Source: Candidatus Magasanikbacteria bacterium GW2011_GWC2_37_14 (GTDB lineage: Bacteria > Patescibacteriota > Patescibacteriia > Magasanikbacterales > UBA922). Taken from it: a stretch of 64,000 bases of DNA. A program made the translations under genes and the position numbers. How positions within the stretch are numbered: position 1 is the stretch's first letter; each line of letters opens with the position of its first letter. Positions 4,976 to 62,843 of the stretch are shown piece after piece. The stretch spans positions 1,757 to 65,756 of the forward strand of contig LBSX01000004.1 in NCBI GenBank assembly GCA_000990355.1. The letters run 5' to 3'. A model generated the notes under the pieces. That model saw only the letters and a program-made list of their open reading frames with translations, did no database searches and was not told the DNA's origin.

Positions 4976-7228
4976 ATGGCGTTAAATACCTCACTCGTAC
5001 AATTAAATACTTTTAGTAAGAGTTTGAGTGCCAAATTAAAAAAAATTGGACTTTTTTCAGTACAAAATTTACTATTTTATTTGCCTTTTCGTTATGAAGA
5101 CTATAGTAAAGTTTTAACAATTGCTAATTTAACCCCAGGAGAACAAGTAACCATTAAAGCGCAAATTAGTGCGATTGCGGTAAAACGTGGTTGGAAATAT
5201 AGTAAAATGTTTACTGAAGCCATTGCCGAAGATGAAACTGGAAAAATAAAATTAATGTGGTTTGGCCAACCCTTTATTGCCAAAGTTTTAAAAATGGGTG
5301 ATGTGGCTTATTTTTCGGGAATTGTGAAAGATGGTAAATTGGGTTTGAATATGGTGAACCCAGTTTATGAAAAAGATACCCCCCCTAGCCCCCCCTTATT
5401 AAGGGGGGGGAAACAGAACGACACCCTTGTTAAAGTGGGAAATCGGATACATACTGCTAGAATTGTGCCAATTTATCATACAACCGAAAAATTAACGCAA
5501 AAACAATTACGTTATTTAATTAGCCAAGTTATTGGTTTGGCAACAGAAATCAAAGAATGGCTGCCTGAAGAATTTTTGGAAAGTGCAGATTTAGTACCAT
5601 TAAGTGAAGCGATTCGGGGAATTCATTTTCCCGAAGATGAAACTGATTTAGTACAAGCGCAAAAACGTTTAAAGTTTGGGGAAATTTTTATTTTACAATT
5701 GCGAGCGGAAATGATTCGCCAGTCTTTAAAAAGAGCTAATGCGCCAATTATTAGTTTTCAAGAAAAAGCAGTAAAAGAATTTGTAGCTAAATTGCCATTT
5801 GAACTTACCGCACCACAAAAAGTAGCTAGTTGGGAAATATTAAAAGACTTAAACAAAAACGAACCAATGAATCGTTTGTTGGAAGGGGATGTGGGCAGTG
5901 GTAAAACTGTAGTAGCGGGTTTGGCACTTTACAATACAGTTTTAAATGGTTATCAGGGAGTGATTATGGCACCGACGGAGATTTTGGCAAGGCAACATTT
6001 TGAATCTTTAAAACAAATTTTGGGTGATAATGTTAGTTTGGCGTTATTAACACGTTCTCAATTTACAGTTTACAATTTACAATTTACAAAAAATTTCCAA
6101 TTTTCAAATGACAAATTAAGTAAACAAAAAATTGTTGAGTTAATCAAAAATGGGGAAATTGATGTGGTAGTTGGTACTCATTCATTGCTCTCAGATGATG
6201 TACAATTTAAACATTTGGGTTTGGCAGTGGTAGATGAACAACATCGTTTTGGTGTGGAACAACGTAAAATTTTGCGTGAAAAAGCTGGTGGTGGGCGACT
6301 TAACCCACATTTTTTATCAATGACCGCTACGCCAATTCCGCGTTCGTTCGCACTCCTGCTTTATGGTGATTTGGATTTATCAATTATTAATCAATTACCA
6401 GTTGGTCGCAAACCAATTAAAACCCGGGTAGTAGAACCTTATAATCGGCAGAAAGCTTATGAATTTATTAAAGAACAAGTAAAACTAGGCAGGCAAGTGT
6501 TTGTAATTTGTCCGCTAATTGAATCATCTGTCATCCCGACCGAGTCTCGCGACGAGTGGAGCCTGCCTGCCGGCGAGGCAGGGGATCCCTCGACTTCGCT
6601 TCGCTACGCTCGGGATGACAAAAGTGACGAGAAAAAAACAGTAATGAGTGAATATAAAAAACTTTCCGAAGAAATTTTTCCAGATTTAAAAGTTGCTTAT
6701 TTACATGGAAAATTGCCCGCCCGAGGCGGGTCCGCCTTGGGCGGAAAGCCATCAAAAGAATCCGTCATGGAAGCTTTTAGAAATGGGGAAACAAATATTT
6801 TGGTTTCTACTTCGGTAATTGAAGTAGGAGTAAATATTCCCAATGCGAGTGTAATGATGATTGAAGGAGCCGAAAGATTTGGTTTGGCACAATTACATCA
6901 GTTTCGCGGTCGGGTAGGCCGGGCCGAGCATCAATCATATTGTTTACTATTTTCTAATACAGAAAACGAGAAAGCCTTAGCACGTTTAGAATTTTTTCAA
7001 AATAATATTGATGGTTTTAAGGTAGCAGAATATGATTTGGAAACTAGGGGACCGGGTGAAGTGTATGGTACGGCGCAATCTGGTTTGGGTAATTTTAAAT
7101 TAGCGACTTTAAAAGATATTAAATTAATAAAACTAGCGCGGGATTTGGTAAGAGATATAGATTTTAACCAGTACCCGATTTTTAAAGAAAAAGTAAAAGA
7201 ATGGGAAAAAGGAGTGCATTTGGAGTAA
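4976..7228 (+). CDS. recG: ATP-dependent DNA helicase RecG (carrying in-frame palindromic-element insertions)
   Basis: Wedge domain, GDVGSGKTVVA, DEQHRFGV, helicase C motifs QLHQFRGRVGRA. Extra Pro/Gly-rich segments correspond to the repeat insertions. Confidence 0.9.
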   Translation: MALNTSLVQLNTFSKSLSAKLKKIGLFSVQNLLFYLPFRYEDYSKVLTIANLTPGEQVTIKAQISAIAVKRGWKYSKMFTEAIAEDETGKIKLMWFGQPFIAKVLKMGDVAYFSGIVKDGKLGLNMVNPVYEKDTPPSPPLLRGGKQNDTLVKVGNRIHTARIVPIYHTTEKLTQKQLRYLISQVIGLATEIKEWLPEEFLESADLVPLSEAIRGIHFPEDETDLVQAQKRLKFGEIFILQLRAEMIRQSLKRANAPIISFQEKAVKEFVAKLPFELTAPQKVASWEILKDLNKNEPMNRLLEGDVGSGKTVVAGLALYNTVLNGYQGVIMAPTEILARQHFESLKQILGDNVSLALLTRSQFTVYNLQFTKNFQFSNDKLSKQKIVELIKNGEIDVVVGTHSLLSDDVQFKHLGLAVVDEQHRFGVEQRKILREKAGGGRLNPHFLSMTATPIPRSFALLLYGDLDLSIINQLPVGRKPIKTRVVEPYNRQKAYEFIKEQVKLGRQVFVICPLIESSVIPTESRDEWSLPAGEAGDPSTSLRYARDDKSDEKKTVMSEYKKLSEEIFPDLKVAYLHGKLPARGGSALGGKPSKESVMEAFRNGETNILVSTSVIEVGVNIPNASVMMIEGAERFGLAQLHQFRGRVGRAEHQSYCLLFSNTENEKALARLEFFQNNIDGFKVAEYDLETRGPGEVYGTAQSGLGNFKLATLKDIKLIKLARDLVRDIDFNQYPIFKEKVKEWEKGVHLE

Positions 7229-7233
7229 ATGAT

Positions 7234-7360
7234 TTTCCCCCTTAACAAAGGGGGACCTGCCTACCGGCAGGCAGGTTAAGGGGGTTGTTGGCGAATATCC
7301 CCCCCGCCTGCCATGCCTGGCACTGGCGGGCAGGCCTAGCCCCCCTTTACCAAGGGGGGT
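7234..7360. repeat. array of C-run/loop/G-run mini-hairpins (family 2) plus a CCTGCCTNCCGGCAGGCAGG hairpin
   Basis: tcccccTTAACAAAGggggac is identical to the module inside ugd. ggggttgttggcgaatatccccc is the reverse complement of a module at 56467-56490. Confidence 0.7.
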
Positions 7361-7937: not shown

Positions 7938-9398
7938 TTATTCTGGTAAAATTTTAGTATTTGAAGGACATTGATTTTTATCAACAGTCACATATAAATT
8001 TGTAACACCCAAGCCCATTACTGTGGCCGCAGTTCCAAAAGTGTAATCTCTTGGCGCACCACGAAATACTTTTTTCCCACCAAGACCGTACTTGGTGCCT
8101 GCGGGAAAGGTGGTATCTGGCCAAGTGTTTGGGTCACATTTAAATATATCGAGTGCTTGTTCCAAACCACCACTACCATTGGCATTACCAAAGTAGATCA
8201 TTAGAATTTTAATTTCGTCTGGGGCATTTTTACATTTGCTTTCAATTAATTTTAAATGGTACTTGATCATATTTACACCAATAGCAGTATTCACAGCAGG
8301 ATTTTTTATGGTAAGTGTATCACACAGACTTTCATTAAGTTTCATTTGTTTTAAATTTTCTTTGCAATATTCTGGTAATGTTTGAAAAAGTCCAGTATAG
8401 CCTATTTTGTTTACGATGTCGGCGTTTAAACCAGATTCTCTGTGCGAAATTCCTTTTAAAACTCTCCAATCTATTCCTATACAATTTGCAAAAGATTGGA
8501 ATACGCTATCGTATTGAGTAGAAGAAATAGGTTGGGCTTTCCAGTAGCCAACACTGTGTCCTTCCAAAATTAATTTGCTTAAATCAGCCCCAGTTACATA
8601 CGCCACTCTTAAATTTTTAAATTCCACCAAATTTGGATTGATACGATAAAGTAGGGAATAAGAACCAACTGCCAAAAGTATGCCAATGATTGCTTCACCA
8701 ATGCGTTTTTTGGAATGACTAATTTTTTCGGCTTCGCCAGCCGACATTACCCAGCCTAAGCCGGCACCAATAATCATCACAATGGAAATAACGGCCATAA
8801 CCGCGATAGCATATTTGTAAATGGCAGCAATGTATTCACCTAAAAAAGGAATATACATGTAAGTACTACCATTTTCTTCAACAGTTTTTATCTCACTAAA
8901 ATTTACTCCAGGAATACTAACACGGGGAGTGGGTTTAATAGTTTTTACTTCATCCAAAAGTTTTATAGTAGCAGGAGTAGCATCGGAGTTAACCAAATAA
9001 TCCCAAAAACTTTGGTCTTTAATAGGTAAAGGAAATTTTGAATTAGTGGCGTTTCTTTTATCTATACAATAGTCCAAGTCCCAGGTCATGTCTTCTCCAT
9101 CGTGGCATTTCCAGTCTTCGGGGACTCCACCAAATTCATCAGAGCAGGTTTTACTGGTTCCTGGATTAAAAGGAACCCACTCGCCATATACTTCTCCACA
9201 GTCACAGAAGGCCAGGGTTTTTCCATTTTCTTCTTTGTTACTGTTTTCACAATCATCGCTTTTGCATTCAGAATTATTATTACAAGGTTGACCAAAAGCT
9301 TTGGTACCAACGGCAAAAGTAAGACTGGGGAATAGACAGAAAATTAAAATAATAATAGACAAAGATTTTTTCATAGATTTTCTTCTGGATCCCCGCAT
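7938..9398 (-). CDS. secreted/membrane protein with Cys-rich N-terminal domain and C-terminal lytic transglycosylase (SLT/GH23-like) domain
   Basis: Signal peptide, TM helices, SLT-like catalytic motif HRESGLN...GYTGLFQ. Confidence 0.5.
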   Translation of the reverse strand: MRGSRRKSMKKSLSIIILIFCLFPSLTFAVGTKAFGQPCNNNSECKSDDCENSNKEENGKTLAFCDCGEVYGEWVPFNPGTSKTCSDEFGGVPEDWKCHDGEDMTWDLDYCIDKRNATNSKFPLPIKDQSFWDYLVNSDATPATIKLLDEVKTIKPTPRVSIPGVNFSEIKTVEENGSTYMYIPFLGEYIAAIYKYAIAVMAVISIVMIIGAGLGWVMSAGEAEKISHSKKRIGEAIIGILLAVGSYSLLYRINPNLVEFKNLRVAYVTGADLSKLILEGHSVGYWKAQPISSTQYDSVFQSFANCIGIDWRVLKGISHRESGLNADIVNKIGYTGLFQTLPEYCKENLKQMKLNESLCDTLTIKNPAVNTAIGVNMIKYHLKLIESKCKNAPDEIKILMIYFGNANGSGGLEQALDIFKCDPNTWPDTTFPAGTKYGLGGKKVFRGAPRDYTFGTAATVMGLGVTNLYVTVDKNQCPSNTKILPE

Positions 9399-9416
9399 TC
9401 GCGAGGATGACAGGGG

Positions 9417-12689: not shown

Positions 12690-13043
12690 TTAGTTACTAA
12701 AAACTTTTAACAATTTATTACATTCTAAATAATATTTTTTATATTCGTTTTCTATAAACAAATTACTAATAAATCCCAGATTTTCTTTTTCTTCTTCTAA
12801 ATGTAAAATCATTAGTTTGGCTCGAACTTTTATAACAGCTTGCAAATAATAATTTATATCTAAACTAGAATCATTTGGATTTTGGTATATTTTAAGTAAT
12901 TGATTTTTAAAATAACCAAGTTCTTCTTTTATTTGTTGGCGTTTTTGGGCTAGTGGTTGTTTGGGGGTATTTTTTTGTTGTTGTGTTTTTTTCAACACCG
13001 TTGCCCATTGTTGTTCGAAGTTTGGCATATTTTTGGTTGTCAT
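12690..13043 (-). CDS. hypothetical protein; start codon lies in the terminal TGTCAT of a MITE
   Basis: ORF only. The ATG is the reverse complement of the element's left terminus. Confidence 0.3.
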   Translation of the reverse strand: MTTKNMPNFEQQWATVLKKTQQQKNTPKQPLAQKRQQIKEELGYFKNQLLKIYQNPNDSSLDINYYLQAVIKVRAKLMILHLEEEKENLGFISNLFIENEYKKYYLECNKLLKVFSN

Positions 13044-13137
13044 GCTGAATCCTGAAATAAATTCAGGACAAGTACCATTTCAGCATCCCAGGGGATCCTG
13101 AAACAAGTTCAGGATGACAATTGTTTTCAGGATGACA
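13038..13137. mobile_element. MITE-like element, family 1 (copy A)
   Basis: Termini TGTCATGCTGAA...TTCAGGATGACA (right end duplicated). Two hairpin modules, GTCATGCTGAA/TTCAGCATC and GATCCTGAAAC/GTTCAGGATGAC. Confidence 0.75.
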
Positions 13138-18606: not shown

Positions 18607-18688
18607 TGTCATGCTGAATCCTGAAATAAATTCAGGACAAGTACCATTTCAGCATCCCCAGGGATCCTGAAACAAGTTCAGGATGACA
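18607..18688. mobile_element. MITE-like element, family 1 (copy B)
   Basis: Near-identical to copy A (TGTCATGCTGAATCCTGAAATAAATTCAGGACAAGTACCATTTCAGCATCCC...GTTCAGGATGACA). Confidence 0.75.
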
Positions 18689-21457: not shown

Positions 21458-21607
21458 GTGGATGTGTATAACCCGCTTGTCTATGTTGCCTTGCTCTGCT
21501 ATACTTAGCCCTATCTTTTAGTTTGAACGCCAAAAGATATTATGAAAATAATCTAATTTAACTGTGGAAAACGCGTGTTTTTGGTTATAATTTTGTTTTC
21601 CGTGTTT

Positions 21608-21690
21608 TCCCCTCCTTAGAAAGGAGGGGCTAGGGGTGGTTGAGTTTATTACGTCAACCCCTCCTGACCTCCCCTTTCCAAGGGGAGGAA
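21608..21690. repeat. family 2 C-run/G-run mini-hairpin array
   Basis: cccctccTTAGAAAGgaggggctagg ... ctcccctTTCCAAGgggaggaaa. Confidence 0.6.
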
Positions 21691-22289: not shown

Positions 22290-22347
22290 TGTCATGCTGA
22301 ATTTATTTCAGCATCCCAGGGGGTCCTGAAACTAGTTCAGGATGACA
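22290..22347. mobile_element. MITE-like element, family 1 (minimal copy C)
   Basis: TGTCATGCTGAATTTATTTCAGCATCCCAGGGGGTCCTGAAACTAGTTCAGGATGACA. Confidence 0.75.
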
Positions 22348-23371: not shown

Positions 23372-23467
23372 TGTCATTCTGAATATGTTTGTCATGCTGA
23401 ATTCACCTGCCTATCGGCAGACAGGTTTCAGCATCCCAGGGGATCCTGAAACTAGTTCAGGATGACA
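23372..23467. mobile_element. MITE-like element, family 1 (copy D, with CCTGCCTATCGGCAGACAGG hairpin insert)
   Basis: TGTCATTCTGAA...GTCATGCTGAATTCACCTGCCTATCGGCAGACAGGTTTCAGCATCCCAGGGGATCCTGAAACTAGTTCAGGATGACA. Confidence 0.7.
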
Positions 23468-23530
23468 GTTATGTTCAGCATGACAATGAATAATTCATTT
23501 GCCTGTGGTACTGTGTGGCTAAGATGGTTT

Positions 23531-23615
23531 TCCTCCCCCTACGAGGGGGAGGCGAGGAGGGGGTTTGGCCAACCGCGAAACCCCATCCCACCCTCCCCTT
23601 GTAGGGGAGGGAAAC
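23531..23615. repeat. family 2 C-run/G-run mini-hairpin array
   Basis: cctcccccTACGAgggggagg ... ccctccccTTGTAggggaggg. Confidence 0.6.
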
Positions 23616-23833
23616 ACCCTCTCGTGCCATACAGTATTGCCGTGAATCTTTAATAGGTTTGCGGTTGGCTGTCCTTCACAAGACGGCCAGGGCACCCCGA
23701 TTTAATCGGGGAGCATAAAGTATAAAGGTCGATCCGTGGCAACACGGAACAGCATGCAAAATTTAAATGCACACTTATTTGGCCAGATTGTGGCGCAAGT
23801 CGCAACGCTGACGAATAAGTTTCTTAATTTATT

Positions 23834-27545: not shown

Positions 27546-27575
27546 GTGGACAAGAAATAGATAAAGCGTTATAAT

Positions 27576-27697
27576 TGTCATGCTGAATTTATTTCAGCAT
27601 CTTTTCGTTAAATAATTACACTAAGTAAATATAATCTTAAGAAAGATCCTGAAACCCTTCGGCATGAGCTCAGGTCGAATGCAAGTTCAGGATGACA
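27576..27697. mobile_element. MITE-like element, family 1 (copy E, long variant)
   Basis: TGTCATGCTGAATTTATTTCAGCATC, then AAGTAAATATAATCTTAAGAAAGATCCTGAAAC...CTCAGGTCGAATGCAAGTTCAGGATGACA. The ATG of the downstream ORF is the terminal ATGACA. Confidence 0.75.
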
Positions 27698-29755
27698 AAT
27701 TCTATGAATAAAATTATTGAAAAAATTGCCAAGTATCTCATCATCGCTTCGTTTTTCGTCCCGCTTATTGTTTTGCCAACCAGCTATATTTTTCCCTTCA
27801 TCGTTCCTAAGATTTTATGGTTTCGGAGTATTAGTTTGTTAATTTTTGCTAGTTATTTATTATTGTTATTTAGCAATTGGCAAAAATTTAAAATTAAATT
27901 TAATTTTTTAAATATTGCTGTTGGTTTGTTTTTTTTAAGTTTTATTGTTTCCACTTTTGTGGGAGTGGATTGGTACAAAAGTTTTTGGGATTCTCACGAA
28001 AGAATGCTGGGTTTGTTTACTTTGTTTCATTATTTACTTTATTACTTGGCTGTTAGCCGTCTCATTAATGGTTGGCCAGAATGGAAAGTGATCTTGCGTT
28101 GGTTTTTGGGTGCTGGGTTAATTGTAATGGTAATTGGCGGCATGCAACAAATTAATCCTGAACTTTTAATTAATCGTGGTGCTCATCGTGTTTCGGCCAC
28201 TCTTGGTAATGCGATATATTTTTCTGGTTATGGTTTGTTTTTATTTTTGCTTGGCTTGCTTTTGGCTATAAAAGAAAAAAAAACAACCCTTCGGCTGGGC
28301 TCAGGACAAGCCTTCTGGTTTTGGTATGCTTGTATAGGTAGTTTGTTTGGTTTTTTGGGAATATTTTGGGGTGGTACTCGTGGTACTACTTTGGGGTTGT
28401 TAGTGTCTTTGGCGGTTATATTTTTTGGTTATGTAATTACTACCAAAGAACACAAAAAATTAAGACAAATGTTATTGTTTTTATCGATATTTTTTATAGT
28501 AGTTTTGGGAATATTGTTTGTTTATCGGAAAAATGAAACCATAAAAAGTATTCCTACACTTGGCAGGTTGTTAAATGCTTCGATTACCGAAGGTAGTGGT
28601 CTTACGCGTTATATGGCTTGGGGGATTGCGGTTGAAGGCTTTAAAGAAAAACCAGTGTTTGGTTGGGGGCCAAATAATTATTATTATGCTTTTAATAAAT
28701 ATTATAACCCAGCGTTTTTAGAACATGGTTGGACTGAAACCTGGTTTGACAATGCTCATAGTGTCATTTTTAATACTTTGGCAGTACAAGGATTTACTGG
28801 TTTGGGTGCCTATCTATTAATGTTTATAGCTGGGGCTTGGATGTTAATTAAGGCTTATAGAAATAAAGGAATAGACCAGCATATTTTAGTATTAAGTATG
28901 GCATTTTTAGCTGGCCATTTTGTGCACAATGCTACAGTATTTGAAAATCCTACGTCATATTTATATTTCTTTTTCTTTTTGGCATTTATAAATTCACAAA
29001 CTGCAGATAACAAACAGCAGATAACAGATAACAAAAAAACATCAGAAATTTCTGTTGGTTTGCTAGTGACAATCGGTCTGATTTTATTGCTCATCATTTA
29101 CTCTACGAATATTAATCCTGGACGGGCAAATAATAATACTCTGCAAACTTTAATGGCTTTTTCTACTGGCAAGGATGTTTTTGGCCCTTATGAAATAGCC
29201 CAAAGTACTCCCACACCTCATATAGATGATATTCGTAGTGATTTTGCTCGTACTGCTATTCAAGCTTTGCCACAAATTTATCAAAGTAAACAAACAGATT
29301 TGGCCAACAAATTAGCTGATTTGGTAATTAATGAATTACAAAAGAATCTAGTTTTACACCCAATGGATATTCGTACTAATCTGGCTTTAAGTCAGGTTTA
29401 TGGTTTACGTGCTCAGGCAGAAAACAATGGGCAGTGGCTTCTAAAAAGTGAACAAATTTTAAATCAAGCTTTAAGTTATTCACCAAAAAGACAACAAGTG
29501 CTTTTTGTATTATCTAGTGTAGAATTAGGTTTGGGCAAAGTGCCTGAAAGTTTAAAATTAATCCAGCAAGCCTTGGATAGTGATAATAAAATTGCCGAAG
29601 GTTGGTGGCGCTTGGCAGTTACTTATGCGCAAATTGGCAACAAAAAAATGGCTATAGAAACCATTAATAAAGCAAAAAGTTTAAATATTGAGCCTACCGA
29701 AGAACAACAAGCTTTACTTGATCAGGTTATGGGTGTAAGTAGCACTCAAAAGTAG
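27692..29755 (+). CDS. O-antigen ligase-like (Wzy_C) polytopic membrane protein with C-terminal TPR repeats
   Basis: About 12 TM helices with a large periplasmic loop (WFDNAHSVIFNTLAVQG), then TPR-like C-terminal region. True start may be the second ATG at 27704. Confidence 0.55.
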   Translation: MTNSMNKIIEKIAKYLIIASFFVPLIVLPTSYIFPFIVPKILWFRSISLLIFASYLLLLFSNWQKFKIKFNFLNIAVGLFFLSFIVSTFVGVDWYKSFWDSHERMLGLFTLFHYLLYYLAVSRLINGWPEWKVILRWFLGAGLIVMVIGGMQQINPELLINRGAHRVSATLGNAIYFSGYGLFLFLLGLLLAIKEKKTTLRLGSGQAFWFWYACIGSLFGFLGIFWGGTRGTTLGLLVSLAVIFFGYVITTKEHKKLRQMLLFLSIFFIVVLGILFVYRKNETIKSIPTLGRLLNASITEGSGLTRYMAWGIAVEGFKEKPVFGWGPNNYYYAFNKYYNPAFLEHGWTETWFDNAHSVIFNTLAVQGFTGLGAYLLMFIAGAWMLIKAYRNKGIDQHILVLSMAFLAGHFVHNATVFENPTSYLYFFFFLAFINSQTADNKQQITDNKKTSEISVGLLVTIGLILLLIIYSTNINPGRANNNTLQTLMAFSTGKDVFGPYEIAQSTPTPHIDDIRSDFARTAIQALPQIYQSKQTDLANKLADLVINELQKNLVLHPMDIRTNLALSQVYGLRAQAENNGQWLLKSEQILNQALSYSPKRQQVLFVLSSVELGLGKVPESLKLIQQALDSDNKIAEGWWRLAVTYAQIGNKKMAIETINKAKSLNIEPTEEQQALLDQVMGVSSTQK

Positions 29756-31160
29756 TGGCAAGCATTTTTTCTAGTGTATAATTTGGTTTAGGGCTTTGTG
29801 TAAATTGTTCTTGCAAATTTTGATTAGAAATAATTTTTACTAAATTTTCTGCTAATAATTCCGAAGAAGCAGGGGAGAGCAACCCTGTTTTTTCATGTTC
29901 TATTAATTCGGGAATTCCACCAACGTTTGTGGCGACAATTGGCAAATTAGCGCTTAAAGCTTCCAAAATAGTATAAGGCAAACCTTCTTTTCTGGAAGGT
30001 AAAACAAAAATATCAAAGGCAGTTAAATATTGGCTAGCGTTTTCTATTGAACCAAGTAGGTGAATGTTGTTAATTTGTAATTTGTTTATTTGTTGTTGTA
30101 ATTTTTCATGTTCTGGCCCTTCGCCAATAATGATAAACTTGGCACTGTCATTGCGAGGAGCCTCAAAAGGCGACGAAGCAATCCCGCCGCTTTCATTACG
30201 AGCCTCGCTCGAGGGAGGCGTGGCAATCCCTTGCTTCATTGGGATTGCTTCGTCAGTCAATGCGAATTGACTTCCTCGCAATGACAATAACTTTACCGCC
30301 TCAATCAAAATATCAATTCCTTTAGTTTTATATAAATTAGCAATCGTACCTACCCAAATGTTACCACTGTCATCCCGACCGAGGCTCGCGACGAGTGGAG
30401 CCTGCCTGCCGGCAGAGGCAGGGGATCTCTTGGTGTTGTGTAAGGGATTCCTCGGTTCCGCTCCGCTACACTCGGAATGACAGACAGACGCTAAAAATCG
30501 TCTCGCCACATCTCTTTCCAAAAACACCGTCTTTTCAATTCCCAATGGTATTTTAACTAATTTGTTTTTTGCAATACCTAAATCCATTCCATCCTGATAA
30601 TCTTTATCCGACAAAACAATAATTTTATCTTTTAATTTAGCAGTAATTTTTTCCAAAAATCTATAAATTGTTTTTCTAAAATTGTTCATTGGCTCATTAA
30701 ACACCCAGCCGTGAACCGTGTACACCAACTTGTCATTGCGAGAAGTCCCGAAGGGCGACGAAGCAATCCCAAGTCTAGCAAGAGACCCAACAATTCCTGC
30801 TTTAGAGCTATTTAAATGTACAACATCTGGCTTTAGTGTTTTATATAGTCTTCTAAGCTCAAAAATAGCTAAAATATCATGCCAAGGACAAATTTTTCTT
30901 ACTAAATGTGAAAGTTGTACTATTGTTATGCTATTTGCCCCTCGGCCTGAGCTCGGGACGAAGGTTATCTGTTTTTTGTTATCTGCCAAAATTTTCTCTT
31001 GTAATTCCTTTTTTCTATTCTTTTCTCCCACAGCCACAAAAACCTGCCAGTCAGTAGGTGTATTAATAGCCAAGTCATATACATATCTCTGCGCTCCACC
31101 CCACTCACCTTGGGTAATTACATAGAGAATTTTCTTTTTTTGTTTATCTTGACTTTCCAT
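29727..31160 (-). CDS. GT4-family glycosyltransferase interrupted in-frame by three palindromic elements
   Basis: GT4 C-terminal motif PSRKEGLPYTILEALSANLPIVATNVGGIPELI. Inserted peptides SLARLGIASSPFGTSRNDK, ...ECSGAEPRNPLHNTKRSPASAGRQAPLVASLGRDDS and ...EAIPMKQGIATPPSSEARNESGGIASSPFEAPRNDS. A single ORF is maintained. Confidence 0.6.
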   Translation of the reverse strand: MESQDKQKKKILYVITQGEWGGAQRYVYDLAINTPTDWQVFVAVGEKNRKKELQEKILADNKKQITFVPSSGRGANSITIVQLSHLVRKICPWHDILAIFELRRLYKTLKPDVVHLNSSKAGIVGSLARLGIASSPFGTSRNDKLVYTVHGWVFNEPMNNFRKTIYRFLEKITAKLKDKIIVLSDKDYQDGMDLGIAKNKLVKIPLGIEKTVFLERDVARRFLASVCHSECSGAEPRNPLHNTKRSPASAGRQAPLVASLGRDDSGNIWVGTIANLYKTKGIDILIEAVKLLSLRGSQFALTDEAIPMKQGIATPPSSEARNESGGIASSPFEAPRNDSAKFIIIGEGPEHEKLQQQINKLQINNIHLLGSIENASQYLTAFDIFVLPSRKEGLPYTILEALSANLPIVATNVGGIPELIEHEKTGLLSPASSELLAENLVKIISNQNLQEQFTQSPKPNYTLEKMLATTFECYLHP

Positions 31161-31215
31161 AGTATTTATAGCATAATATATTTAGACTTTTTTTGCAAGA
31201 ATAAGCGGAAAAAAC

Positions 31216-31329
31216 TGTCATGCCTAACTAGTCTGTCATGCTGAATTTATTTCAGCATCTCTCTTAATATTAAAAAGATCCTGAAACCTTTCGGCGTGAG
31301 CTCAGGTCGAATGCAAGTTCAGGATGACA
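31216..31329. mobile_element. MITE-like element, family 1 (copy F, long variant with duplicated left terminus)
   Basis: TGTCATGCC...TGTCATGCTGAATTTATTTCAGCATC...GATCCTGAAACCTTTCGGCGTGAGCTCAGGTCGAATGCAAGTTCAGGATGACA. Confidence 0.75.
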
Positions 31330-32296: not shown

Positions 32297-32354
32297 TGTC
32301 ATCCTGAATTTATTTCAGGATCCCTTGGGATTCTGAAACGAGTTCAGAATGACA
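32297..32354. mobile_element. MITE-like element, family 1 (minimal copy G, CCTGAA/CCTGAA variant)
   Basis: TGTCATCCTGAATTTATTTCAGGATCCCTTGGGATTCTGAAACGAGTTCAGAATGACA. Confidence 0.7.
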
Positions 32355-55220: not shown

Positions 55221-56711
55221 ATGAAAATACTTTATATTGGTTCGGGGTTTGTGGGTGCTTGTAGTGCGGCGGTATCGGCCGACAGTGGCCACGAGACTTT
55301 GGTCTACGATATTGATCAAAGAAAAATTGATCTTTTGTCGTCTGGCGATCGTGATACCATTCAATCTTGCCTATACGAAGAAGGGCTAGGGGATTTGCTT
55401 ATTCGTAATCGCGAACGAATTAAATTTACTACCGATTATGCGCTTGTGGAAGAGTTTTTAAATACGGCCGAAGCAGTTTTTATGTGCTTGCCTACGCCAG
55501 AAATTGGTGAAACTGGTGAGAGTAATTTAAGTTATTATTTTTCTGCTGCCGAAAAATTGGCTGAGAGTCTTTTGAAACGCAATAAAAATAAGCAAACTCA
55601 ATACATCGTGATTATCAACAAGAGCACTGTGCCAATTGATATGATAAATAAAACTGCGGAAATTATGGATAAAAGCCAAGTAAAAAATTATGGTGTGGTT
55701 TCTAACCCAGAATTTTTGGTAGAAGGCAAAGCAGTGCAAGATTCACTTCACCCCGATCGCGTGGTAGTAGGTGCTTGGACCGAAAAAGATTTTGCGATTA
55801 TGCGTCAAGTTTATAATCGTTTTTATAATTCGGCAAATGTAAAATATTTGGAAGTAAATCCCAAAGAAGCGGCGGCCGGAAAATTATTGGCCAATTTTAC
55901 TTTGTTTAATAAATTGGCAATTTGTTTTGATGTAATTGGCCGTACTTGTGAAACTTTTAGCGATTTAAAATTTGAAAATTTACGGCAGATTTTAACTAGC
56001 GACCCTCGTATTGGCACTTGGGGTATGTATGATAGTTTGTATGCTGGTGGTAGTTGTTTTATCAAAGATGCGCGTTCATTGTCGCACCAATTACAAACTG
56101 CGGGGCAAAACGCGGTAATGGTCAATGAAACTTATTTGGCCAACAAGCGCCAATTGGAATTGTTTATGAGTCGGGCAGAGAAAGAAGTCCTTCGACCAGC
56201 TCAGGATAAATCTAATTTTTCTTGGACTGGTAAAAAAGTTGCCTTACTTGGTTTGGCTTTTAAACAAGCCACCAATGATATTCGTAATTCTCCGGCAATT
56301 GATATTGTACGGATTTTACAAGAAAAACAAGTAGGTGAGATTCGTTGTTTTGATCCAGCGGCAATGTTTTGGTTTAAAACAATATTTCCCGAAAATGAAC
56401 AGATGAAGTATTGTGAGAGTGAGGTAGATTGTCTTGGTTCGGTCTCCCCCTTAACAAAGGGGGACGAAGGGGGATATTCGCCAACAACCCCCCAACCCCC
56501 CTTTATTAAGGGGGGGAATAGTGACTGTATTGTTGACGTTGTCATCATCGCCACAGACTGGCCACAATTTAGAAATTTAACTACTAGTTTATTAAATTTA
56601 AAAAACAAACCACTTATAATGGACGGCCGGCGCATGCTCTCGGGAGATTACGAAAAATTAAAAGAAAATGGTTTTGTAGTTATTCCAGTTGGGGGACAGG
56701 TAGTGAAGTAA
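55221..56711 (+). CDS. ugd: UDP-glucose 6-dehydrogenase with in-frame mini-hairpin insertion
   Basis: MKILYIGSGFVGACSA (NAD binding), catalytic GGSCFIKD, C-terminal UDP-binding domain. Inserted peptide SPLTKGDEGGYSPTTPQPPFIKGGNS. Confidence 0.8.
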   Translation: MKILYIGSGFVGACSAAVSADSGHETLVYDIDQRKIDLLSSGDRDTIQSCLYEEGLGDLLIRNRERIKFTTDYALVEEFLNTAEAVFMCLPTPEIGETGESNLSYYFSAAEKLAESLLKRNKNKQTQYIVIINKSTVPIDMINKTAEIMDKSQVKNYGVVSNPEFLVEGKAVQDSLHPDRVVVGAWTEKDFAIMRQVYNRFYNSANVKYLEVNPKEAAAGKLLANFTLFNKLAICFDVIGRTCETFSDLKFENLRQILTSDPRIGTWGMYDSLYAGGSCFIKDARSLSHQLQTAGQNAVMVNETYLANKRQLELFMSRAEKEVLRPAQDKSNFSWTGKKVALLGLAFKQATNDIRNSPAIDIVRILQEKQVGEIRCFDPAAMFWFKTIFPENEQMKYCESEVDCLGSVSPLTKGDEGGYSPTTPQPPFIKGGNSDCIVDVVIIATDWPQFRNLTTSLLNLKNKPLIMDGRRMLSGDYEKLKENGFVVIPVGGQVVK

Positions 56712-56821: not shown

Positions 56822-57139
56822 ATGGCCAAGGCGAAGTTGCCCTTCCTGTTGCGTTTGGACTTGGGGGAACCCATTCCTTTCTACCCCCAGAGTCCGGTGT
56901 GTACCGAGCCCAAGAGCAAGCGGCGCTACCTCTTGCTCTGCACGAGCTTGATGGTTGGGGTGCTCACCTTCATCGAGAACCCCGCCAAGATCGTGCACTC
57001 CGACGGCGGGCTCGCCAAGCTGATGTTGCCCAAGGGCGCCAAGCCCGGCGACAAGCTGATCCCTGTGCGCAGGAGCCACAAGTTCAAGTGCTACTGGGCC
57101 AGGATCGCTGCGCCCACCACCACCACCACCAAGCGCTAG
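56822..57139 (+). CDS. small (105 aa) protein of unknown function encoded in a compositionally foreign GC-rich island
   Basis: Strong GC3 codon periodicity (AAG, GCC, CCC, ATC, GAG) in this frame only. Ends in a Thr5 run. No recognisable family. Confidence 0.45.
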   Translation: MAKAKLPFLLRLDLGEPIPFYPQSPVCTEPKSKRRYLLLCTSLMVGVLTFIENPAKIVHSDGGLAKLMLPKGAKPGDKLIPVRRSHKFKCYWARIAAPTTTTTKR

Positions 57140-57361
57140 GTGCGCGCCATGCTCTTTTCTACTGGACCGCCCTGTCTTGTACGATTATTCAATTGTACAG
57201 CAGGCCAAGACCACATCCCCAGCCTGTTTAGTTTTTAAAAGATTAAAAATTGAGCAGGCCTGCCTGCCGGTAGGCAAGGAGAAATAGGGATGTGGTTTTT
57301 GTTTTAGTTAATTTTTTTGAAGCGATTATTTTTTTGTGATATAATATTGTCATTATTTTTT

Positions 57362-57514
57362 TCTGTCATGCTGAACTCGTTTCAGCATCTTCGCGTCATT
57401 CCCGTGTAGACGGGAATCTTACAAACAAAAAAAGATCTCCGCCTACGCGGAGATGACGCATAAAAAAGATTCTGAAACCTGCCTGCCGGTAGGCAAGGTA
57501 AATTCAGGATGACA
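57362..57514. mobile_element. MITE-like element, family 1 (copy H, nested inserts)
   Basis: TGTCATGCTGAACTCGTTTCAGCATC, then GTCATTCCCGTGTAGACGGGAATC hairpin, then AGATCTCCGCCTACGCGGAGATGACG hairpin, then GATTCTGAAACCTGCCTGCCGGTAGGCAAGG...TTCAGGATGACA. Confidence 0.7.
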
Positions 57515-62703: not shown

Positions 62704-62732
62704 TTGACTTTTTTCGCTTAATTATATATAAT
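62704..62732 (+). promoter_or_regulatory. sigma-70-like promoter upstream of infB (precedes a MITE in the 5' UTR)
   Basis: TTGACT (62704-62709), 17-nt spacer, TATAAT (62727-62732). Confidence 0.5.
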
Positions 62733-62749: not shown

Positions 62750-62843
62750 TGTCATCCTGAGCTTGTTTCAGGATCTATCCTAAAGTCATATTTGTTAAGT
62801 AAAATAATCTTAAGAAAGACCCTGAAACAAGTTCAGGGTGACA
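62750..62843. mobile_element. MITE-like element, family 1 (copy I, variant with CCTGAG/CCCTGAAAC arms)
   Basis: TGTCATCCTGAGCTTGTTTCAGGATC...AAGTAAAATAATCTTAAGAAAGACCCTGAAACAAGTTCAGGGTGACA. Shares the AATCTTAAGAAAGAYCCTGAAAC insert with copy E. Confidence 0.7.

Follow-up and report, generated by a model that had tools for sequence, protein, structure and literature searches.

Nine short palindromic loci are dispersed through a 64,000-nt stretch of the genome of Candidatus Magasanikbacteria bacterium GW2011_GWC2_37_14 (contig LBSX01000004.1, positions 1,757 to 65,756; hereafter the window). In the reading that we favor, to which we give a probability of about 80%, these loci are gene-less head-to-head dimers of an Ssn-type CGTC-2 hairpin, which spread recently and whose placement is set by the space available. 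The observations behind this reading include: (i), the anatomy of the hairpin unit, which matches a described superfamily of repetitive extragenic palindromes (REPs); (ii), the covariation of its stem; (iii), the recurrence of the same unit on both sides of Ssn-like GIY-YIG nuclease genes in metagenomes; and (iv), syntenic DNA of relatives that is free of the elements.

A family of head-to-head hairpin dimers

The window was searched on both strands for TGTCATSCTGAA with at most one mismatch: it is found 21 times against 0.52 expected, none of 100 shuffles reaches 21, and all the matches are confined to the nine loci that an initial annotation, made from the sequence alone, had named as dispersed copies with shared inverted termini. 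An assembly artefact, which that annotation had kept in mind, is excluded because identical copies are present in an independent assembly (L121) of the same Rifle groundwater sample (PRJNA268031). This source points to the candidate phyla radiation as host, and so do Pfam matches to DUF5652 and DUF5667 and the nearest named homologs, which are from Candidatus Magasanikbacteria.

The basic unit is a hairpin of about 25 nt, tGTC-AT(G/C)CTGAA-5 nt-TTCAG(C/G)AT-C. The unpaired tGTC tag is present in all 18 CTGAA-type units of the window; their stem is of 8 bp (ATSCTGAA / TTCAGSAT), its first two pairs being A-T and T-A in 18/18, and every unit has GTC directly 5' of the palindrome and C directly 3' of the stem. 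The loop measures 5 nt in 11 of the 18 (TTTAT, CTTGT, CTAGT or CTCGT), while the others have 7 nt or loop insertions of 21-32 nt, and several loops hold nested hairpins. The 3' tail of the unit reads cca, ccc or cct in short-spacer dimers and ttt, tct or tat in long-spacer dimers. Units form a head-to-head pair at 9/9 loci, with nested hairpins or half-units in some, and the heads face outward so that the termini read TGTCAT...ATGACA. The two internal hairpin modules of the initial annotation are present as it described them, except that the second is the first in reverse orientation. A heterodimer is usual, with ATGCTGAA as left unit and ATCCTGAA as right unit; G-type and C-type units are combined in 7/9 loci. 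Copy 8 has in addition a GTCATTCCCGTGTAGACGGGAATC-type unit pair nested within its CTGAA-type pair. The coordinates first proposed were mostly right, with three corrections (the end of copy 4 at 23485 rather than 23467, the start of copy 8 at 57364 and the half-unit with which copy 6 begins), and the nine copies are as follows:

Copy 1, 13038-13137: head-to-head dimer with the clpB stop (13143) on one side and the next minus-strand gene's start on the other; G-type unit 13039-13087 with a nested loop hairpin, C-type unit 13094-13118 (minus strand), right half-unit 13120-13137.
Copy 2, 18607-18688: head-to-head dimer with a loop insertion like that of copy 1, between the DUF11 gene stop (18696) and the DUF5652 gene start (18579).
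Copy 3, 22290-22347: minimal head-to-head dimer of 58 nt, within the 75 nt that separate the ECF sigma and DUF5667 genes.
Copy 4, 23372-23485: dimer 23390-23467 inside an outer half-unit pair, 23372-23389 and 23468-23485; left unit with a CCTGCC...GGCAGACAGG hairpin in its loop; begins 2 nt past the DUF5667 gene stop.
Copy 5, 27576-27697: long-spacer head-to-head dimer, abutting a promoter-like site and ending 6 nt before the probable Wzy start at 27704.
Copy 6, 31216-31329: left half-unit 31216-31233, then a long-spacer dimer, whose end and the probable epimerase start (31336) are 6 nt apart.
Copy 7, 32297-32354: minimal 58-nt head-to-head dimer (C-type / T-type), beginning 1 nt past the epimerase stop codon.
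Copy 8, 57364-57514: outer CTGAA-type pair around CGTC-1-like units 57395-57418 (plus strand) and 57434-57457 (minus strand), with a promoter-like site upstream.
Copy 9, 62750-62843: long-spacer head-to-head dimer, preceded by a promoter-like site and followed by infB (ATG 62849).

Some copies resemble each other beyond the unit itself. Copies 1 and 2 share 97% identity over 89 nt, copies 5 and 6 share 94% identity over 67 nt of the right-hand unit, and each pair has a derived loop insertion in common, which suggests that whole composites are what gets duplicated. Four element ends (13120-13137, 23372-23389, 23468-23485 and 31216-31233) show the 12-nt head-plus-arm duplicated 18 nt farther out, and an equivalent half-unit duplication lies downstream of the ssn gene in metagenomic locus L207; such duplications may be the footprint of the copying mechanism. 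On the plus strand the G-type unit stands left and the C-type unit right in 7/7 informative dimers (copies 1-6 and 8), regardless of gene strand. The tally drops to 7:1 once a copy on the adjoining contig is counted, and we did not build upon a strand-fixed orientation. GC skew is positive across the whole window.

The elements as CGTC-2 REPs

By their sequence, the elements fall into the CGTC/TGTC-tagged REP superfamily, family CGTC-2, and represent a known kind of repeat in a new host clade. The initial annotation had not recognized the family, and a literature search with the raw 11-mer met it only in primers of papers on other subjects. Both the unit and its pairing into head-to-head dimers had nevertheless already been described in 2013 (Di Nocera, De Gregorio & Rocco, BMC Genomics 14:522; PMC3733652), and a cognate protein family followed in 2025 (PMC11893778). 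CGTC REPs are defined by a CGTC tag (with TGTC and CCTC variants), a stem of 8 bp that begins AT, a loop of 5 nt and a CCA tail; they mostly occur as head-to-head dimers, and heterodimers are typical of CGTC-2 (PMC3733652). The window elements share the tag, the 8-bp AT-starting stem and the 5-nt loop, and a short CCA-like tail is seen in their short-spacer dimers. Like CGTC-2 REPs, they are mostly head-to-head heterodimers whose spacers are variable or structured themselves, mostly intergenic with some in-frame intragenic cases, able to give stop codons through their termini, and free of any adjacent transposase. The differences are of host and of detail: (i), the window belongs to the candidate phyla radiation (CPR, Patescibacteria), outside the five phyla listed in 2013; (ii), its tag is always TGTC, many loops hold nested hairpins and some ends carry half-unit duplications; (iii), its copies are as near downstream starts as upstream stops, in keeping with a compact genome. 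The resemblance may extend to the letters: an intragenic CGTC-2 insert of Sulfurovum encodes the peptide RHSELVSGS (PMC3733652 supplement), which back-translates to CGTCATTCTGAACTTGTTTCAGGATC, to be set beside the window unit TGTCATTCTGAACTCGTTTCAGAATC at 32329-32353 (minus strand); this comparison is inferred from the peptide, the DNA being unprinted in the paper.

The same framework bears out the comparison with Rickettsia palindromic elements (RPEs) made by the initial annotation. The CGTC-1 family comprises Neisseria dRS3 and Rickettsia RPE-6, and CGTC-4 is RPE-4 (PMC3733652), so that these elements are members of the same superfamily. They differ from the window elements in their stems (ATTCCCGC or ATTCCAGTG against ATSCTGAA) and in their hosts, which are Proteobacteria.

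How far the unit extends was examined by scanning a genome collection (one genome per species) for GTCATSCTGAA-N3-8-TTCAGSATC with the S positions left free, which gave at least 120 loci; what follows holds among the matches listed. The hosts include Gracilibacteria, Saccharibacteria, Nomurabacteria, Falkowbacteria, Sphingomonadaceae and Pedobacter, and further Treponema, Ignavibacteria, Nitrospirota, Melainabacteria, Elusimicrobiota, Rickettsia and others. Most loci have the head-to-head layout. The variable stem position is complementary in 151 of 153 units without the pattern requiring pairing, the loop is of 5 nt in 152 of the 153 where 3-8 nt were allowed, and the base 5' of GTCAT is C in 77 and T in 63. 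The hairpin unit is also common in viral contigs of IMG/VR (L209-L328, for example L249, L242 and L292); among the matches listed, viral contigs with at least three units usually have them all on one strand (7:0, 0:5, 4:0) and not as head-to-head dimers.

A link to Ssn GIY-YIG nucleases

Ssn proteins (cd10448, small single-domain GIY-YIG, about 95 aa) are site-specific nucleases that act on single-stranded DNA (ssDNA) only (Chenal et al. 2025, Nat Commun 16:2388; PMC11893778). Their binding sites are NTS hairpins (CGTCATTCCCGCGMAVGCGGGAATCYRG) and kindred SRM motifs, and they cut a few nt upstream of these; binding and cleavage were shown for CGTC-1 and Wolbachia-type hairpins, the three bases 5' of the palindrome being critical for cleavage and the C 3' of it for binding, and the NTS-ssnA-NTS gene architecture was likened by the authors to REP/RAYT (PMC11893778). 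The GTC upstream of the palindrome and the C after it, which are the positions critical for cleavage and binding, are the ones conserved in the window units.

An unbiased clustering of 1,216 open reading frames (ORFs) from the at least 120 unit-bearing loci pointed the same way: among the matches listed, the only suggestive family was a small GIY-YIG protein beside units in three Bacteroidota loci, and no transposase family recurred near the units. The link was then approached from the protein side, with 80 metagenomic loci picked by Ssn-like protein similarity alone, 67 of which had enough flank. A forward unit lies within 150 nt upstream of the gene in 42 of the 67, an inverted unit downstream in 44, and both in 35. 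Beside the Ssn-like gene 172 units were counted, where the far flanks of these loci would predict 8.5. CTGAA-type units make up 127 of the 230 units in these loci. One locus, L195, reads TGTCATGCTGAACTTGTTTCAGCATC - ssn - GATCCTGAAACAAGTTCAGGATGACA (in parts, TGTCATGCTGAA..TTCAGCATC - ssn - GATCCTGAAAC..GGATGACA), which is the layout of the window's dimer with an ssn gene as spacer; the nearest named relatives of its Ssn are from Moranbacteria, Parcubacteria and other Patescibacteria. In these loci the CTGAA (CGTC-2) class is tied to Ssn-type genes as the NTS class is, which adds it to the published association, and CPR bacteria appear to carry Ssn/hairpin pairs. The window thus resembles the Ssn/SRM system in the critical positions, in the motif-ssn-inverted motif architecture that metagenomes show with its own CTGAA unit type, and in the clustering of copies around surface-related genes in a motif-gene-motif layout. 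It differs in that its copies are gene-less dimers of CTGAA-type units, unmatched by the SRM search string, and in that no ssn gene was found in the 82 kb examined.

REPINs offer an architectural parallel. Reportedly introduced by Bertels and Rainey in 2011, they are said to be REP doublets tied to RAYTs. Two inverted REP hairpins and their spacer behave as one replicating unit, and the model is the same: a non-autonomous element served by a single-copy enzyme that acts on ssDNA and whose gene is flanked by the same hairpins. Could the window elements be REPINs in the strict sense, doublets copied on ssDNA by a single-copy RAYT, a Y1 HUH transposase? The doublet architecture, the conserved unpaired head followed by a palindrome, the apparent copying of whole composites and the common plus-strand orientation of the informative window copies would fit, this last point being weakened by the copy just outside the window. 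Yet the head is YGTC and not GTAG, the gene between units is that of a GIY-YIG nuclease rather than a Y1 enzyme, no Y1_Tnp is found among the Pfam-scanned window proteins, and no RAYT or IS200 gene was found flanked by CGTC repeats (PMC3733652). We therefore regard strict REPINs as very unlikely.

Recent gain in the lineage

Three sets of relatives have preserved the window's order of genes (DUF11 - HTH - sigma - DUF5667 - large protein - Wzy), which makes the comparison of junctions possible. No CGTC-type unit is found in 5.3 kb of syntenic DNA of a relative with 81% amino-acid identity (L122), nor in 13-21 kb of syntenic DNA of relatives that are about 54% identical (L125-L128). At the sigma/DUF5667 junction, where copy 3 lies in the window, L122 has a different palindromic element of the CCTCCCCC...GGGGGAGG type, and in distant relatives (L125, L127) the two genes overlap. 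At the site of copy 4, the DUF5667 gene of L122 runs straight into a conserved leader. This absence from syntenic DNA implies that the family expanded in the lineage after those splits, and the elements are therefore recent insertions in a Magasanikbacteria-like CPR lineage. The view of the initial annotation that the family is non-coding, palindromic and apparently mobile agrees with this.

Mobility of this kind might suggest classical miniature inverted-repeat transposable elements (MITEs), that is, internally deleted derivatives of insertion sequences with a DDE transposase, mobilized in trans via their terminal inverted repeats, as the initial annotation had proposed in likening the family to Correia elements. 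The elements are indeed short, non-coding and multi-copy, they have inverted termini (TGTCAT...ATGACA), and they differ in presence between relatives. However, no target-site duplication or conserved insertion motif was found in the flanks of any copy, which gave only two chance 3-nt matches. In L122, where a clean empty site was sought, one junction has a different repeat and the other is blurred by a C-terminal indel, which leaves the insertion boundaries approximate. The termini, moreover, are the heads of two independent hairpin units, which are also found single or otherwise combined across phyla. Nor is there a transposase among the approximately 40 larger window ORFs scanned against Pfam, or a transposase family enriched near the unit-bearing loci listed. 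In Correia elements, terminal inverted repeats of 26 bp come with a TA target duplication and an IHF site. All three are absent from the window elements, and what the two have in common is to be short, intergenic and palindromic; Correia elements are often co-transcribed with their neighbors and can bring promoter or processing signals. Of the likeness first proposed, the kinship with RPE-4 and RPE-6 is retained, but we give hardly any credence to a classical MITE.

The CCTCCCCC...GGGGGAGG repeats form a second dispersed palindromic family, in the window at 7229-7360, 21601-21690, 23527-23614 and 56440-56516 and in relatives at L122 1002-1089 and L127 11410-11530. That L122 carries such an element in the very spacer where the window has a CGTC dimer suggests that the sigma/DUF5667 spacer is a shared hot spot for small palindromic insertions. 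The non-coding leader that precedes the 1214-aa gene (23615-23833) is 96% identical to that of L122, against 85-87% for neighboring coding DNA. Some of its blocks are invariant (TGCCATACAGTAT), and a CTTATTT/GAATAAG hairpin shows compensatory changes among relatives farther off. It has no Rfam match and is a candidate structured leader RNA. The Rfam scan covered the whole window at gathering thresholds and gave no match; an ARAGORN scan of the window found no tRNA or tmRNA genes.

Placement relative to genes

The initial annotation held that every copy lies within 0-25 nt of a start codon and that this placement is specific to gene 5' ends. We think instead that a compact genome and the way ORFs are called account for most of it. 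The window is gene-dense, most of its spacers being shorter than 30 nt, and 7/9 copies lie in tandem stop-to-start spacers, with one in a divergent spacer and one in a long spacer. Their removal leaves a spacer of 10-34 nt in four stop-to-start cases, meaning that ordinary spacers have been filled. An upstream stop codon is found within 7 nt of 5/9 copies, and for copy 4 the next credible gene (23834) is 348 nt away, the ATG right after the copy opening a frame through non-coding DNA that is conserved in a relative. A tenth copy of the same genome (L329 16521-16597, approximately 4.3 kb past the right end of the window; C-type unit left, G-type right) lies in a convergent spacer, where it gives a glutamate dehydrogenase gene its last codons and its TGA stop. 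The genes that adjoin the window elements are clpB, those for a DUF11 surface protein, the ECF sigma / DUF5667 pair, a 1214-aa protein, a Wzy-type ligase, a GT4 glycosyltransferase, two epimerases, a polysaccharide deacetylase and a 1237-aa LTD protein, and infB.

The start codons that the elements seem to export have a simple origin, since their terminal ATG is the reverse complement of the conserved GTCAT head. It is mechanically true that ATGACA provides the first ATG of the ORFs at 27692, 31324, 32349 and 13043 (minus strand), but this is a by-product of calling ORFs from the first ATG. From one assembly to another, the called starts of infB, Wzy and the epimerase shift by precisely the ATG that the element brings. 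The Wzy ortholog alignment begins at residue 5 of ORF 27692, which places the start at 27704, and an independent gene call uses 27704 and 31336, though it keeps 32349. Exported start codons, as envisaged in the initial annotation, are therefore unlikely. Its suggestion that the AGGATGA end acts as a Shine-Dalgarno site is weak as well: strong pairing of that kind occurs at no more than 3 of the 51 gene starts of the window, so that this genome hardly seems to use such sites, the element AGGA lies 11-21 nt from start codons, and two minus-strand cases terminate in CAGCATGACA, without AGGA. Regions upstream of genes are A/T-rich, and ATGAA is the commonest start context (14/51 genes), a general bias that explains why ATGAA recurs just past the elements.

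Several points nonetheless weigh against the reading that we favor. The association is tighter at starts than at stops, as the next start is at most 27 nt downstream for 8/9 copies whereas stops are as close as stated above for 5/9; the 0-25 nt of the initial annotation thus came near the mark for all copies except copy 4. Four copies (5, 6, 8 and 9) are found 0-39 nt downstream of high-scoring promoter-like matches, including before infB, and some selection for, or use of, the leader position is possible. On the side of the nuclease, the copying or moving of hairpins by Ssn was offered in the 2025 paper only as a hypothesis (PMC11893778), the published degenerate SRM string matches 0/18 CTGAA-type units and, in the window, only the lone unit at 9385-9412, and no GIY-YIG gene is found in the six-frame translation of the window or in approximately 18 kb of adjoining contig (82 kb examined). 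The features concerned are:

9385-9412, minus strand: lone CGTC-1 / NTS-like unit TGTCATCCTCGCGAATGCGGGGATCCAG, the only window match to the published SRM search string.
27547-27575, plus strand: promoter-like TGGACA-17-TATAAT, 11/12 consensus matches, directly 5' of copy 5.
31149-31177, plus strand: promoter-like TTGACT-17-CATAAT, 10/12 consensus matches, 39 nt 5' of copy 6.
57317-57345, plus strand: promoter-like TTGAAG-17-TATAAT with an extended -10 TG, 10/12 matches, 18 nt 5' of copy 8.
62704-62732, plus strand: promoter-like TTGACT-17-TATAAT, 11/12 matches and the best in 56-64 kb, 17 nt 5' of copy 9.

Three of these four promoter-like sites are the best or second-best plus-strand match in the region scanned, while that of copy 6 is among several with 10/12. 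Copies 5, 6, 8 and 9 are thus probably transcribed in 5' leaders, to judge from consensus matches in AT-rich DNA. The promoter-proximal placement claimed initially, including before infB, applies to these four, each of which has a strong promoter-like match on one side and a start codon on the other.

Should the elements then be seen as RNA elements co-opted to control downstream genes, whether by forming hairpins in 5' leaders or by donating start codons or ribosome-binding sites? The four leader copies end 5-15 nt before start codons, and the flanked genes are mostly cell-surface or glycan genes. The dimers are also predicted to fold, as RNA or single strand, into long hairpins (-27 to -56 kcal/mol, z-scores of -4 to -10.6); an inverted dimer, however, folds strongly in any case, and the promoter matches are to a consensus, in DNA that is AT-rich. 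Relatives do without the elements at the orthologous junctions, five copies lie inside probable operons directly past a stop codon, and the tenth copy sits at a 3' end. With Shine-Dalgarno-like pairing so rare and the AGGA spacing wrong, and with two starts placed downstream of ATGACA by ortholog alignment and independent gene calls, this explanation is in our view unlikely.

The opposite possibility, a 3'-end role for upstream genes as mRNA-stabilizing or terminator-like hairpins, has been proposed for E. coli REPs. It would account for the 5/9 copies that begin just past an upstream stop codon and for the copy outside the window that overlaps one, and unidirectional REPs are reported to hug the 3' end of the upstream ORF (PMC3733652). 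Terminator-like scores are obtained for the single units 27580-27600, 57435-57454 and 62819-62839. But most dimers lack a T-tract, a promoter-like site separates four copies from the upstream gene, and the same junctions in relatives lack these elements. A 3'-end function consequently strikes us as improbable too, and a placement set by available space remains the reading that we prefer.

Other small insertions and islands

Insertions are not restricted to spacers. Real genes of the window hold in-frame TGTC-tagged palindromic composites or G-rich hairpins at 30146-30286, 30368-30482, 30731-30770, 6529-6620, 5381-5409 and 56440-56520, which by analogy would amount to RPE-like behavior in a CPR genome. 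The GT4 glycosyltransferase gene has three in-frame inserts and its ORF is still open; in recG one insert separates the DEAD domain from Helicase_C and another follows the wedge domain, and the gene for UDP-glucose dehydrogenase is also affected. RPEs likewise insert in frame into genes, as these related TGTC composites do in the recG, GT4 and UDP-glucose dehydrogenase genes. The main composites are:

30146-30286 and 30368-30482: two related TGTC-tagged palindromic composites, not of the CTGAA family, inserted in frame in the GT4 glycosyltransferase gene.
6529-6620: composite with TGTC tag, palindromic, set in frame into recG where the DEAD domain gives way to Helicase_C.

Islands of 55-62% G+C also occur in this 35% G+C genome, at 56822-57138 of the window and at L329 16640-16930. 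Each has a short ORF without Pfam match a few hundred bases from a hairpin dimer, one of them with a GGGAGG ribosome-binding site and a terminator, and they may be acquired small genes.

Possible spread and significance

How could such dimers have spread? The autonomous form would be the hairpin - ssn gene - inverted hairpin arrangement, of which the window copies would be the gene-less version, by analogy with REPINs and RAYT genes; the two systems would differ in their parts, a GTAG head and a Y1 HUH transposase on one side, a YGTC head and a GIY-YIG nuclease on the other. A cognate Ssn would recognize the CTGAA-type hairpin (TGTCATGCTGAATTTATTTCAGCATC) as single-stranded DNA, and the elements would spread through ssDNA events involving this nuclease, either encoded elsewhere in the genome or supplied transiently. 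Copying by Ssn, or by any other enzyme, would be part of this scheme, as might an effect of the elements on neighboring genes. Selection would then act as a filter, new copies surviving only where a compact genome tolerates 60-150 extra bases, namely within operons, in stop-to-start spacers, and in the interval from a promoter to its start codon. Restriction to such tolerated spacers would make the copies look targeted to gene 5' ends.

There is an outside chance that the gene-less dimers are more than passengers, given that they bracket surface and glycan genes and sit in leaders, with a role at the DNA or the RNA level. At the DNA level, they could be ssDNA-cut cassettes through which surface genes have their recombination or transformation tuned, a role proposed for Neisseria; at the RNA level, they could be leader hairpins that set translation or stability of surface and glycan genes. 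As a corollary, Ssn could be the missing mobilizing enzyme of all CGTC REPs, including the CTGAA class that the SRM pattern misses. To the left of the window, no more than 10 kb from its start, L332 (1-9700) carries a diversity-generating retroelement (reverse transcriptase and bAvd) and dprA, and the proximity of dprA bears on a possible ssDNA or transformation role of Ssn-type motifs.

No new kind of element is described here; what is new is the host clade and the subtype missed by the SRM string. Two literatures that do not cite each other, on CGTC REPs (2013) and on Ssn/SRM (2025), are thereby joined. For annotation, the lesson is practical: hairpin dimers make called proteins too long at the N terminus, contribute stop codons and interrupt real genes in frame. 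The set of testable Ssn/hairpin pairs is widened by the CTGAA class. For the organism itself, a CPR genome of roughly 1 Mb with almost no intergenic DNA has recently been colonized by the CGTC/SRM hairpin family.

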